A stretch of DNA of 64,000 bases from assembly GCA_963702005.1 (NCBI GenBank), contig OY969696.1, positions 448,001-512,000 of the forward strand. Reading direction: 5' to 3'. Positions 6,762 through 40,359 of this stretch are shown here, in pieces (within the stretch, counting starts at the first letter, position 1; each line of letters begins with the position of its first letter). The translations under genes and the position numbers were made by a program. Under the pieces are notes generated by a model. It ran no database searches. It saw only the letters and a program-made list of their open reading frames with translations, and had not been told where the DNA came from. This DNA comes from Candidatus Aminicenantes bacterium (GTDB taxonomy: Bacteria > Acidobacteriota > Aminicenantia > Aminicenantales > JAFGBC01).

Positions 6762-6836
6762 TGGTAGGCGCGGAGGGGATTGAACCCACGGCCTCTTCCG
6801 CGTCAAGGAAGCGCTCTCCCACTGAGCTACGCGCCT
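6762..6836 (-). tRNA. tRNA-Val(GAC)
   Basis: Reverse complement AGGCGCGTAGCTCAGTGGGAGAGCGCTTCCTTGACGCGGAAGAGGCCGTGGGTTCAATCCCCTCCGCGCCTACCA folds as a cloverleaf with GAC anticodon, TTC loop and encoded CCA. Confidence 0.96.
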
Positions 6837-6984: not shown

Positions 6985-7476
6985 CTAGACCAGTCTGGTT
7001 TTTAGCCTCCGAAACATCGGAAGGAAGGTCGCTAAGAAAACAACTACGATGTCGATGTCCGCGAACAGCAGGAACAACGACGGCTTAAGGGCGCCGGTTT
7101 CTACTAAAAAGGGGGCGGTCGTCAACATGATCTTGGCGAGAATTGTGAAGAGGGCAATGAGGACGAGCAGGATGATCCTGACCTGGAAAAGCGTTAGTAC
7201 GGGCTTGGACCAGTACGACAATGAAACCAAGAGAAATAGGATGATCAGGCCGATCGCCAGGGCAGGAATATGGATCCCGCTCAGCGTCCCGGGCCTGGGG
7301 ACGGCATAGGACCAGAAGACGTCTTTAAAGGCGACGCTGCCGGATCCAAGGGCTTTCAACCTCATGTAGAAGGCAATCAGGCCGGTTGCTAAGCAGCACA
7401 ACGGGATATACGCGACAAGAAGAATCCATTGGGCTTTCGATTTTGCAGCCGGGGCCGTCTTTTCGTGCAAATTCAT
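6985..7476 (-). CDS. Hypothetical membrane protein (about 4 TM helices)
   Basis: ATG at 7476 preceded by GAGGAGG. Four hydrophobic segments, and lower GC than the flanking genes. Confidence 0.7.
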   Translation of the reverse strand: MNLHEKTAPAAKSKAQWILLVAYIPLCCLATGLIAFYMRLKALGSGSVAFKDVFWSYAVPRPGTLSGIHIPALAIGLIILFLLVSLSYWSKPVLTLFQVRIILLVLIALFTILAKIMLTTAPFLVETGALKPSLFLLFADIDIVVVFLATFLPMFRRLKTRLV

Positions 7477-7591
7477 CTTAACCTCCTCTTCCGGACGCCC
7501 GGTTTTTCTAAGCCAATCGGTTGTGACCCCATCAATTTCGTTCTCGAGGCCGGCTCCCGGAAAAATATAATAAAACGGTCCGGCGATTGGT

Positions 7592-7812
7592 GTCAACCCT
7601 TCGACACCCATACTAAGCCGTTTCCGGCTTAGTATGAGTACCGCAAGGCTGGGCTTGCTCAGGGTTAACCCTGAGCCTACTCAGCCCCATTCCTCCTAAA
7701 AGGGCTGAGTACAAAAGTGTCGCTTCTCGTCCCTGCCTTTCAGGGCGGCACACACGAACCGTTCCCGGTTCGTGAGTACTGCAAGGCTGGGTAGCGTCGG
7801 CGAACGGGTCAA
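7592..7812 (+). repeat. Modular palindromic element, copy A
   Basis: GTCAACCCTTCGAC...GCTCAGGGTTAACCCTGAGC...AGCGTCGGCGAACGGGTCAA. Shares long blocks with 27780-27933 (inverted) and 39730-39988. Confidence 0.9.
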
Positions 7813-7882
7813 GAAAACCGACGGGCATTCTCTTTGAAACAACTCGTTCCCTATGCTACTCTGTCGCCGAGGTGTTTCCCCG

Positions 7883-8365
7883 TTGATCGGCATCTTATCC
7901 GATAGCCACGACAACCTGCCCATGCTGGAACGGGCCGTCCGGCTTTTCAACGACGCCGGCTGCAGCCTGGTCATCCACGCCGGGGACTTTGTGGCCCCTT
8001 TCGCGGCCCGAACCCTGGCCGGCCTCCGCGCTCCCCTCAAGGCCGTCTTCGGGAACTGCGACGGCGAGAAGGTGGGCCTCGCGGCTGCCGTCGCTCCCAT
8101 TGGGGAGATCCGGAAGGCTCCCTTCCAATTTGAGCACGGCGGCATCGCGTTTCTGCTCGTCCATTCAAACGTCGGCCTGGCCGCAATGGTCGCTTCGGCA
8201 GTTCCCGATGTCGCCGTATTCGGCCATACCCACAAGTCCGCGGTCGCCCGGAGGGGGAAAACCCTCCTCATCAACCCGGGCGAAGCGGGAGGCTGGGTCC
8301 ACGGCAAAAGCACGGCCGCCCTCCTCGACCCCGCCAGCCTGACCGTGGAACTTATTCCTTTATAA
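7883..8365 (+). CDS. YfcE/MJ0936-family metallophosphoesterase
   Basis: SDSHDN, HAGD, GNCD, FGHTH and NPGE motifs. TTG start after GAGGTG. Confidence 0.9.
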   Translation: MIGILSDSHDNLPMLERAVRLFNDAGCSLVIHAGDFVAPFAARTLAGLRAPLKAVFGNCDGEKVGLAAAVAPIGEIRKAPFQFEHGGIAFLLVHSNVGLAAMVASAVPDVAVFGHTHKSAVARRGKTLLINPGEAGGWVHGKSTAALLDPASLTVELIPL

Positions 8366-27779: not shown

Positions 27780-27933
27780 TTGACCCGTTCGCCGACGCTA
27801 AGCCCAGCCTTGCAGTACTCACGAACCGGGAACGGTTCGCGTGTGCCGCCTTTCAAGGCGGGGATGGGAAGCGCGGCTCAGGGTTAACCCTGACCAAGCC
27901 CCGGCATTCATGCCGGGGAGTCGAGGGTTTGAC
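27780..27933 (-). repeat. Modular palindromic element, copy B
   Basis: TTGACCCGTTCGCCGACGCT...GCTCAGGGTTAACCCTGA...GTCGAGGGTTTGAC, inverted relative to copies A and C. Confidence 0.9.
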
Positions 27934-27966
27934 TTAGCTATTTCGTTCCCTTATATTAAAGCCGCC

Positions 27967-29190
27967 ATGGATTGGGAAACGCTCGCCAAGGAGCTTGCCG
28001 TCGTCAACGACGCCAAGATCGTCCTCCTCGTCCTGGACGGGATGGGCGGCCTCCCCGTCGCCGGCAAAACCGAACTCGAAGCGGCCCGCGCGCCGAACCT
28101 GGACGCCCTGGCCGCCCGCAGCGCCTGCGGCCTGACGATCCCCGTCTTGCCCGGCATCACGCCCGGAAGCGGCCCGGCCCACTTGTCCCTGTTCGGCTAC
28201 GACCCGCTCCGCTACCAGCTCGGCCGGGGCATTCTCGAGGCCCTCGGCTCGGGCGTCGAAGTCGGCCCCAAGGACCTGGTCGCCCGCGGCAATTTCGCGA
28301 CTTTAAAGGCCGGCCTCGTCACGGACCGCCGCGCCGGCCGGCTGGCGACCGAAATCAACGCCAGGATTTGTCAGGGGATCAACGCCGCCTTCTCGTCCTC
28401 GAAGGGCGCTTTCGCGCCCTTCGAGGACGTCGAGGTCCGGCTCTTCCCCGGCAAGGAACACAGGTTCGTGGCCCGCTTCAGCGGCGAAGGGCTCGACGAC
28501 CGCTTGAGCGACGCCGACCCCCAGAAGGAGGGCAAGCCCCGCATTCCGGCCAAACCCCTTGCCCCTGAAGCGGAGAGGGCGGCCGCCGTCGTCGACCGCT
28601 ATTTGGACTGGGTGACGGACCTGCTCAAGGACGAGCCGGTCGCCAGCACGATCCTGGTCCGAGGCTTCTCCAAGTTCCCCTCCATCCCCGCGATGGCCGA
28701 CCTCTACGGAATCCGGCCCGCCGCCATCGCCAACTACCCCATGTACAAGGGCCTGGCCCGCCTCCTGGGCATGTCCGTCCTCGACGCGGGCGCGGAGACG
28801 ACGTCGCTCTTCGACGCTCTGGAGAAGCACATCAAGGACTTCGACTTTTTCTATATCCACTACAAGAAAGCGGACTCGGCCGGCGAGGACGGAAATTTCG
28901 CGGCCAAGGTCGCGGCCATCGAGGAGATCGACGCCCTTCTTCCCCGCCTGACGGCCCTCGAGCCCGACGTCCTCGCCGTCACCTCCGACCATTCGACCCC
29001 CGCCCTCCTCAAGGGCCACTCCTGGCACCCGAACCCCTTCTGCCTCGTCTCCAAATACGCGCTCCCCGACGCGGTGACTCGCTTCAGCGAGCGGGACTGC
29101 GGGCGGGGGATCCTGGGCTGCATCCCTTCGCTCCAGGTCATGCCCCTCATGCTGGCCCATGCCCTGAAGCTCAAAAAGTACGGCGCTTGA
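27967..29190 (+). CDS. apgM: 2,3-bisphosphoglycerate-independent phosphoglycerate mutase (ApgM type)
   Basis: VLDGMG, PGSGPAHLSLFGYDP, TDRRAGR, TSDHSTP and HSWHP motifs. Confidence 0.93.
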   Translation: MDWETLAKELAVVNDAKIVLLVLDGMGGLPVAGKTELEAARAPNLDALAARSACGLTIPVLPGITPGSGPAHLSLFGYDPLRYQLGRGILEALGSGVEVGPKDLVARGNFATLKAGLVTDRRAGRLATEINARICQGINAAFSSSKGAFAPFEDVEVRLFPGKEHRFVARFSGEGLDDRLSDADPQKEGKPRIPAKPLAPEAERAAAVVDRYLDWVTDLLKDEPVASTILVRGFSKFPSIPAMADLYGIRPAAIANYPMYKGLARLLGMSVLDAGAETTSLFDALEKHIKDFDFFYIHYKKADSAGEDGNFAAKVAAIEEIDALLPRLTALEPDVLAVTSDHSTPALLKGHSWHPNPFCLVSKYALPDAVTRFSERDCGRGILGCIPSLQVMPLMLAHALKLKKYGA

Positions 29191-39706: not shown

Positions 39707-39734
39707 ATTATACCAACTCGGCCCCGTTTGTCAA
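39707..39734 (-). promoter_or_regulatory. Consensus sigma70 promoter for yceD-rpmF-plsX-fab operon
   Basis: TTGACA-16 nt-TATAAT with TG extension. The -35 coincides with the end of repeat copy C. Confidence 0.75.
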
Positions 39735-39988
39735 ACCCTAAGCAAGCCCCAATCCAAGGGCTTGTAAGGAGCGGAAGCTTCTCAGAATCATTCTCATTGT
39801 AGGCGTTTGAGCGCCCGTACTCATGAGACGTTTCCGGCTCATGAGTATTGACCCTGAGCCCACTCAGCCCCATTCCTTCTAAAAGGGCTGAGTACAAAAG
39901 TGTCGCTTCTCATCCCCGGCTTGAAAGGCGGCACTCATGGAAGCCATGGGTACTGCAAGGCGGCGCCTAGCGTCGGCGAACGGGTCAA
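39730..39988 (+). repeat. Modular palindromic element, copy C
   Basis: GTCAAACCCT...ACCCTGAGCCCACTCAGCCCCATTCCTTCTAAAAGGGCTGAGTACAAAAGTGTCGCTTCTC...AGCGTCGGCGAACGGGTCAA, largely shared with copy A. Confidence 0.88.
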
Positions 39989-40065
39989 CCGCTCCGGATT
40001 CGCCTTGCAATTGCCGCCGCAAGTCGGCTAAAATAAGAGTCCGCTGAGGACAAGGGAGCGAAAAC

Positions 40066-40359
40066 GTGTTCGGTTTCAACACGAAGCTTGACTACAAAGG
40101 CGCCGACGTTCACGTCCAGACCCAGGACATGGGACCGGCCGCCCAGTATATCGAGTCCCTCATCTACGTCTCGGGGAAGCTCGCCTCCTCGCGAAAAACC
40201 TTTTACACCCATGTTCTGGGAACCCCCCAGTTCAGAGTGGTCGTCCAGCGGATCATGGAAGAGCAGCACGGGACCATCCTCCGGGAGATCTCCGAGGGAA
40301 AGCTCGATCATCTCCTGGCCCCGGACGGCAAGCCGCCCGGCCAAGGGTCGGAGGATTAG
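40066..40359 (+). CDS. Small hypothetical protein (GFNT...HVQT.D.G...IESLIY pattern)
   Basis: GTG start after AGGGAG, typical codon usage, directly upstream of polA. Confidence 0.7.
   Translation: MFGFNTKLDYKGADVHVQTQDMGPAAQYIESLIYVSGKLASSRKTFYTHVLGTPQFRVVVQRIMEEQHGTILREISEGKLDHLLAPDGKPPGQGSED

Follow-up and report, generated by a model that had tools for sequence, protein, structure and literature searches.

Three repeats in the window analyzed here, a 64,000-nucleotide stretch of a single-contig, 4.31-Mb genome of Candidatus Aminicenantes bacterium, are copies of a small gene-less mobile element that is present in over a hundred copies in this bacterium. The element inserts after TTGAC and itself ends in TTGAC; therefore, about half of its copies rebuild a predicted sigma70 -35 box. 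It is probably a PATE-like derivative of the IS200/IS605 family that is targeted to the TTGAC motif, with its excess at promoters arising by selection rather than by homing. Below, G000 denotes this genome, G001, G002, G005, G012, G013, and G025 denote relatives, and L numbers denote individual loci.

Three copies in the window abut predicted promoters

Copies A (7592-7812) and C (39730-39988) carry GTCAA at both termini on the plus strand, and copy B (27780-27933) carries TTGAC at both termini. On the TTGAC-bearing strand, the copies follow a common plan, from which the right end of copy C has diverged: TTGAC, CCGTTCGCCGACGC, a series of hairpin modules, and GTCGA(A/G)GG(G/T) followed by the terminal TTGAC, which is joined to a unique spacer and -10 box. 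A preliminary description had reported that all three copies start and end in the same 5-mer in direct orientation, and the coordinates agree on rereading. It had also placed the terminal TTGAC of each copy as the -35 of an outward-facing promoter-like site with unique spacer and -10, and the predicted layouts are as it gave them. The features are as follows (promoters are predictions read from the sequence).

7592 to 7807, minus strand: element copy A, 216 nt, with left end CCGTTCGCCGACGC, nested hairpin modules, and its own terminal TTGAC (7596-7592)
7808 to 7812, minus strand: probable host target TTGAC of copy A, with insertion 3' of the target, as judged from the variant-pentamer and empty-site results
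7567 to 7596, minus strand: predicted promoter A, TTGACA (7596-7591)-18-TATTAT (7572-7567), facing a 163-aa ORF (6985-7476)
7834 to 7862, plus strand: predicted divergent promoter, TTGAAA-17-TACTCT, beyond the left end of A and facing a metallophosphoesterase gene (7883-8365)
27780 to 27784, plus strand: host target TTGAC of copy B; a single TTGACT in the G001 and G002 orthologues
27785 to 27933, plus strand: element copy B, 149 nt, with terminal TTGAC at 27929-27933
27929 to 27957, plus strand: predicted promoter B, TTGACT (27929-27934)-17-TATATT (27952-27957), 9 nt before the ATG (27967) of an apgM-like gene
39730 to 39983, minus strand: element copy C, 254 nt, mosaic in build and diverged at its right end; G001 also has an insertion at the same site
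39984 to 39988, minus strand: host target TTGAC of copy C; a single TTGACA in the G005, G025, and G013 orthologues
39707 to 39734, minus strand: predicted promoter C, TTGACA (39734-39729)-16-TATAAT (39712-39707), with a TG extended -10 and facing yceD-rpmF
40005 to 40034, plus strand: predicted divergent promoter, TTGCAA-18-TAAAAT, beyond the left end of C and facing an ORF (40066-40359)

The ORF downstream of A is without a Pfam family, the gene downstream of B is a phosphoglycerate mutase (PF10143), and the genes downstream of C encode YceD and then L32p; A and C are each flanked by divergent promoter-like sites. In the left part of copy B, the guide TAAG (27799-27802) precedes a hairpin that is broken by a nested module, and in its right part the guide CAAG (27895-27898) precedes an intact hairpin (27899-27918) with AG at the hairpin foot. 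The start codon of the apgM-like gene lies 9 nt past the predicted -10 (window 27952-27969), likewise in G001 and G002, which predicts a near-leaderless transcript. The junctions of B and C are covered by contigs from four other public DNA sequencing runs, and among the matches listed from these runs no contig joint skips either copy. Thus, B and C are not assembly artefacts.

Copies are numerous and about half adjoin a -10 box

A genome-wide blastn search with the element returned 145 clusters, some of which are stand-alone modules. Right ends were defined blind to the downstream sequence; 128 were terminal, 116 of them in exact TTGAC, and there were 6 tandem junctions, at which adjacent copies have one TTGAC in common. 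The latter arrangement is compatible with a single-stranded circle intermediate but is not proof of one. No single fixed sequence describes the copies, which are instead mosaics built from shared modules. They have no coding capacity and no terminal inverted repeat, have strong predicted folding, and carry TTGAC in direct orientation at both ends in 78 of the 105 parsed cases.

The sequence TANNNT at a spacer of 16 to 18 nt was present at 60/116 of the TTGAC right ends, versus a mean of 6.5 and a maximum of 14 in 1,000 flank shuffles; the same test on free TTGAC sites in G000 was positive at 563/9,301. The offsets of the -10 boxes peak sharply at 18 and 19 (30 and 26 sites). The enrichment that the preliminary description had proposed to look for, by searching the ends genome-wide against shuffled controls, is therefore present. 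Its statement that every copy sits on a -35 box is true of A, B, and C, whereas genome-wide it applies to about half of the copies.

The element was present in 7 of 40 relatives, with G012 among these being a marginal match. A pattern scan across genomes yielded at least 108 stretches, 89 of which were paired and 76 of which were kept (right end TTGAC plus 40 nt of flank); the 19 unpaired stretches, several of them chance matches in other phyla, were set aside. Among the matches listed, a -10 box was found at 30/76 of these pattern-selected copies, versus a shuffle mean of 3.1, and nearly all records with the same left end were titled Candidatus Aminicenantes. One 67-nt copy on a promoter-like site (L082) is in a record titled Eubacteriales, reflecting either transfer or mis-binning. 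The left-end pattern had 0 matches in viral contigs. In Rfam, the element matched no family at the gathering score, with HgcC hit only below that score (E values of 0.52 and 2.6). No published description of this mini-element was found in the literature searched, with most subscription papers and supplements lying outside the reach of that search.

The left TTGAC is the host target and the right TTGAC is the element's own end

Variant left pentamers ending in AC were found at 29 of 119 parsed left ends. None of these pentamers was copied on the right (0/29), and 23 of the 29 copies had TTGAC there. For 79 elements of relatives, the empty site was rebuilt by keeping the left pentamer and was searched in G000; 10/79 had a G000 orthologue spanning the junction, and 8 of these 10 were gap-free at the junction. 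At L032, for example, CTTAC is on the left and in the G000 empty site, and TTGAC is at the right end of the element. In the window, site B is empty in G001 and G002, each with one TTGAC (TTGACT-17-TATATT/TATAGT), and site C is empty in G005, G025, and G013, again with one TTGAC (TTGACA-16-TATAAT). G002 at site C also has TTAGGG(G)TTTGAC, which may be a remnant, and was therefore left out of the empty sites. Because no variant pentamer was copied and the empty orthologues have a single TTGAC, the left TTGAC is the host target and the right TTGAC is the element's own end, without target duplication. Target-site duplication is ruled out by the same variant pentamers together with the gap-free empty sites.

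These results bear on several earlier claims. The single-TTGAC empty alleles that had been suggested as a check exist for B and C, and they support the description of a non-autonomous mobile element that targets TTGAC and keeps the -35, spacer, and -10. Of the suggestion that the element duplicates or regenerates TTGAC, regeneration stands, by way of the element's end, and duplication does not. Nor is everything upstream replaced, as had been supposed, since the empty sites show upstream DNA displaced rather than deleted. The insertion point lies between positions 5 and 6 of the -35 hexamer, and the predicted promoters at B and C are older than the insertions, with their upstream DNA moved away but retained.

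Among five relatives, no empty allele of A was found. At this site, G001 has TTGAC-CCGTTCGCC fused to a spacer and TATCAT, which is probably a deletion remnant. The 163-aa ORF downstream of A is present in G001 and absent from G002, G005, G013, and G025. In these four genomes, a predicted TTGACA promoter directly faces the tRNA (6765-6836 in the window), and at this predicted tRNA-facing promoter G013 has another kind of hairpin repeat, whose end is GGGGTTGAC.

Hairpins and guides resemble those of IS200/IS605 elements

Among the 105 parsed copies, simple hairpin ends were recognized at 38 right ends and 48 left ends, the rest consisting of nested modules or a single hairpin. At the simple right ends, the hairpin foot is 15 nt from the end in 38/38, CAAG is directly 5' of the hairpin in 30/38, and AG is directly 3' in 34/38. 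Applied to these ends, the guide rule of IS608, in which a fourth guide base also pairs with the cleavage site, maps CAAG onto TGAC as its predicted partner. In IS608, the cleavage site is recognized by base pairing with guides located 5' of the hairpin (G-35:C-3 and A-34:T-4), A-10 and G-9 form triplets, and the hairpins lie 19 and 10 nt from the ends (PMC3201880).

At left ends with an NAAG guide, the hairpin foot is at 18 nt, and the first guide position covaries with the target. With G at this position, the target is TCAC in 5/8 cases, versus 3/95 otherwise (P = 3e-5), and two further G/TCAC cases lie outside the filter (L018 and position 596436); the C of TCAC is present in the empty host orthologues of L018 and L081. 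Guide C is paired with target TGAC in 25/26 cases. With T at the first guide position, the target base is G in 57/69, not the Watson-Crick A. At 25/48 simple left ends, the hairpin lies at 16 nt and no NAAG guide is present, yet these ends mostly follow TTGAC. Single-hairpin forms of 53 to 78 nt recur at unrelated sites, and the 53-nt forms are core-deleted; such forms could arise via deletion of the core between repeated AAGCCCCG, by analogy with elements described in PMC3119063.

Copies are oriented with respect to replication. The TTGAC strand is leading-strand sequence in 98/116 copies (84%), versus 1,803/3,345 genes (54%) and 176/368 free promoters (48%) (P = 4e-12). The same bias, toward the lagging-strand template, is known from IS200/IS605 elements (PMC5027513). 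The best half-genome split from the elements alone (460 kb/2,615 kb) roughly agrees with the GC-skew extremes (503 kb/2,759 kb).

The modules also host other insertions. A 1.3-kb element whose ORF starts with MYFIGVDHHKQ, which we take to be IS110-like, was inserted four times at ATGA|GT inside mini-element hairpin modules (G000 contig C1, positions 2354003(+), 3156011(+), 4077640(-), and 3585037(-)) and also at L108; a diverged copy lies in another hairpin repeat at 989025(-). Other insertion sequences replace the terminal TTGAC at the mini-element right end (2816655(-) and 4082283(-) on the same contig, and L091), two of which, starting in TGT, are presumably IS481-like. An inverted repeat, GGGGTCAAACCTAC, flanks one RAYT-like gene and often has the mini-element or an IS200 in its loop (mini-element loci L036, L093, and L101; IS200 flanks at 1259993, 2614818, and 3781633).

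Related IS200 elements follow the same guide rule

The genome G000 carries three RAYT-like genes and an IS200-type tnpA in 11 near-identical copies. Mini-element ends were found around none of them, and the three RAYT-like genes are flanked by other repeats. The search for a Y1/RAYT or recombinase gene flanked by the same ends, suggested in the preliminary description, likewise had a negative outcome: an autonomous TnpA element with mini-element ends was found neither in G000, nor among 151 genomes of the order, from which 30 loci were read, nor in at least 108 genome matches, nor in 80 metagenome loci. One of nine Y1 loci in relatives (L055) has a truncated left end nearby. RAYT-like Y1 genes are present in G000, G001, G005, G013, and G025; among these, an IS200-type TnpA was found only in G000 and G001.

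The resident 11-copy IS200 differs in its hairpin sequences and has the target (T)GCAC, the end TTTAC, and a right spacing of 8 nt versus 15 nt in the mini-element. With ends that differ in this way, it was rejected as a proven parent; its TnpA is a candidate for acting in trans on the mini-element. In the IS200 clade related to this TnpA (loci compared: L194, L200, L219, L240, and the resident IS200), the hairpins are 20 nt and start in CCCCG, with left spacings of 17 to 19 nt and right spacings of 8 to 9 nt. The guide rule holds at 70/74 left ends, and T follows the cut in 62/67. This clade thus shares with the mini-element the 20-nt hairpins, left spacing, guide rule, and T after the cut, and differs in hairpin and end sequences and in right spacing. 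Only some of its members target TTGAC, and a strict -10 box was found at 0/13 of the autonomous right ends in TTGAC. Four autonomous IS200 loci of 603 to 607 nt have TTGAC at both ends (TnpA of L219, 85% identical). Therefore, a target equal to the end, TTGAC, occurs naturally in IS200 elements here.

Across loci L191 to L291, the clade forms a natural retargeting series, in which the guides CATG, AATG, TATG, GCTG, GTTG, AATC, AATA, GATA, and AGTT match, in the same order, the targets TGAC, TTAC, TAAC, GCAC, ACAC, TTAG, TTAT, TCAT, and CTAA. The rule is broken at 13 right ends that pair GATG, GACG, or AATG with TTGAC. Directly after the IS200 right ends at L185, L193, L209, L220, L228, L270, and L274 is a sequence starting in GTGTG or GTGCG, which we take to resemble group II introns at their 5' end; this suggests group II introns homing to IS200 end hairpins.

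Two other candidate parents were set aside. The right end of the mini-element presumably resembles omega-RNA starts. An IscB/TnpB parent was tentatively rejected on finding no RRXRR or TnpB domain in G000, two weak TnpB zinc finger matches among 151 genomes, and no Rfam family at the gathering score; the RRXRR search matched 0/41 genomes, with an uninformative control that likewise matched nowhere. Long unpaired ends in G000, also considered as a parent, are IS110-like and other insertions inside the element.

Homing to promoters or survival at promoters

Occupancy was counted for copies with left pentamer TTGAC over all TTGAC[A/T] sites in G000, using promoter predictions and gene classes from a hexamer-based gene caller (3,345 genes, 84% coding, RNA genes ignored). 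Copies occupy 47/404 promoter-like sites (~12%), 23/448 gene-facing sites without a strict -10, 4/76 convergent sites, 1/133 antisense sites, and 0/901 sites in called genes. When sites are stratified by strand and by following base, occupancy favors promoters 3.5-fold over other intergenic sites (P = 2.5e-6) and 2.8-fold over convergent regions (P = 0.12), and the odds ratio over gene-facing sites without a -10 is 2.8. Among free gene-facing intergenic TTGAC sites, 368/835 (44%) have a -10 box. Promoter occupancy is higher at TTGACT (16/85) than at the consensus TTGACA (31/319; P = 0.034). The promoter-like share is 4/17 among near-identical copies, 9/22 among intermediate copies, and 39/66 among divergent or unique copies (4/17 versus 39/66, P = 0.013), similarity being an age proxy that mixes age with mosaicism. 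The target motif combined with purifying selection is the likeliest cause of the promoter association, and the empty coding sites and almost empty antisense sites also speak for selection. The dedicated safe-harbor strategy put forward in the preliminary description is not borne out. Much of the association is explained by motif and survival: the 44% of free gene-facing sites with a -10, the preference for T over A, and the few near-identical copies at promoters. A residual enrichment at promoters remains beyond motif and survival.

This residue is where the same IS200/IS605-type element might be biased to promoters in its insertion itself, by forks pausing at co-directional promoter-bound RNA polymerase or by contact between transposase and holoenzyme, a reading we consider unlikely. 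It would account for the odds ratios of 3.5 and 2.8 over other intergenic and gene-facing sites, although the comparison with convergent regions is not significant. TTGACA, the less preferred hexamer, is occupied at 31/319 promoters versus 9/399 other intergenic sites and 0/42 convergent sites (P = 0.036 against convergent sites), whereas TTGACT, at 16/85 promoters versus 4/34 convergent sites, shows no such difference (P = 0.43). Occupied promoters number 41/232 on the leading versus 6/172 on the lagging strand, and protein road-blocks of replication forks attract IS608 (PMC5027513), but copies off promoters show just as strong a strand bias (43 leading to 9) as copies at promoters (47 to 8). 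The -10 boxes beside copies elsewhere (30/76, among the matches listed) also fit such a bias, as does the finding that only 1/17 near-identical copies lies in a called gene; selection would therefore have to be fast. Against it, these near-identical copies are mostly off promoters, and -10 strength is alike at occupied and free promoters. Upstream A+T is lower at occupied promoters (0.38 versus 0.45; P = 0.003), a pattern that would fit either the sparing of UP-dependent promoters or decay of the displaced flank. We infer that selection, not homing, underlies the residual promoter excess.

The recurrence of single-hairpin forms at unrelated sites, the mosaic, modular build of the copies, and the wider distribution of RAYT-like genes than of IS200-type TnpA among the five genomes could also point to REP/BIME-like repeats spread by a resident RAYT-type Y1 enzyme, with a single hairpin and guide directing both cleavages. 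We regard this as quite improbable, given that other repeats surround the three RAYT-like genes of G000 and that the ends of the element are fixed and distinct, its empty sites precise, and its target 5 nt long; core deletion between repeated AAGCCCCG could also yield the single-hairpin forms. Least probable of all, and very improbable in our view, is a classical MITE that duplicates a 5-bp target site, or else a regulatory RNA or DNA element that is conserved and supplies new promoters. Although the direct TTGAC at both ends and the strong predicted folding would be expected of these, the idea is largely refuted by the variant-pentamer and empty-site results, with predicted promoters pre-existing in the empty orthologues of B and C. 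Moreover, the termini are not inverted repeats, no Rfam family was matched at the gathering score, and a -10 is present at only 5/27 variant-target copies, so promoter creation is at most rare.

Proposed mechanism and known systems

As a motif-targeted IS200/IS605 derivative, the element would rely on a Y1 (HUH) TnpA supplied in trans and would move by single-strand "peel and paste." In its core form of ~107 to 108 nt, the left and right ends would be fused, each having a 20-nt hairpin immediately preceded on its 5' side by an NAAG guide. By pairing with the cleavage site, this guide would direct insertion 3' of (T)TGAC, with T or A favored as the next base and the lagging-strand template used in most cases. 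Since the right cleavage site would also be TTGAC, each insertion would place a regenerated TTGAC next to the old downstream DNA. At a sigma70 -35, the promoter core would thereby be rebuilt, putatively with its activity, and the old upstream DNA moved 50 to 350 nt away. Insertions within genes, and those on the antisense side of 5' regions, would be purged.

The mini-element works like a PATE of the IS200/IS605 family, a mechanism class that is already known, and shows most of the defining features, with a mixed picture for the left guide; the assignment is made because of the hairpin-and-guide anatomy, the covariation of guide and target, and the 84% leading-strand bias. The PATEs of Haloquadratum walsbyi include core-deleted short forms and nested small elements (PMC3119063), and PATE-type elements insert at specific targets without duplication (PMC4810608). 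Like PATEs, the mini-element is gene-less, has subterminal palindromes, makes no target duplication, exceeds a hundred copies, and has core-deleted forms (~52 to 53 nt) and other small elements nested in its palindromes; unlike them, it has a bacterial host, uses TTGAC as both left target and right end, rebuilds a predicted sigma70 -35 in about half of its copies, and has no parent with the same ends among the sequences searched (PMC3119063). With IS608 and ISDra2 it shares a cleavage site that is predicted to pair with a guide 5' of the hairpin, purines at the 3' foot (PMC3201880), and the lagging-strand-template orientation (PMC5027513), with a left spacing of 18 versus 19 nt. It differs from them in having no tnpA or tnpB, a right spacing of 15 versus 10 nt, many left ends without a canonical guide, and identical left and right cleavage sites versus TTAC and TCAA in IS608 (PMC3201880).

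Oriented insertion at sigma-A promoters with the core spared is also a feature of TnGBS/ISLre2 (p-MULT 3) and the ISKra4 group, which have DDE Mutator-like enzymes and inverted repeats and insert 15 to 17 bp upstream of the -35 region (PMC3942029). In contrast, the mini-element follows a DNA motif and inserts within the -35 hexamer, a difference that the preliminary description had also drawn. A TnGBS/ISLre2-type element was accordingly rejected, the insertion lying between hexamer positions 5 and 6. Fusion (hybrid) promoters from IS ends likewise combine a -35 from the element with a -10 from target DNA; these are new promoters, whereas the mini-element swaps an existing -35 for the same pentamer (PMC9330008).

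Biological significance

A bolder reading, which we hold to be rather unlikely, is that guide evolution has made both cleavage sites identical to the sigma70 -35 core, with insertion additionally directed to promoters, for instance through fork pausing at promoter-bound RNA polymerase, making a promoter-homing, self-repairing element. If homing were true, upstream regions would have been rewritten at about one in five co-directional TTGAC[A/T] promoters (41/232), differently in each related species, and the element would be a lineage-wide agent of regulatory rewiring. Under the favored reading of motif targeting and selection, restoring the -35 that it cuts would be a simple route to near-neutral spread, a transcriptional analogue of a self-splicing insertion, by which the element has reached ~12% of the TTGAC[A/T] promoter-like sites, including a ribosome-related operon. 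Sister species differ in their insertions and so offer dozens of natural filled/empty promoter pairs for the effect of upstream displacement on expression. The guide/target series of the mini-element and the related IS200 clade provides an in vivo check of the IS608 retargeting rule.
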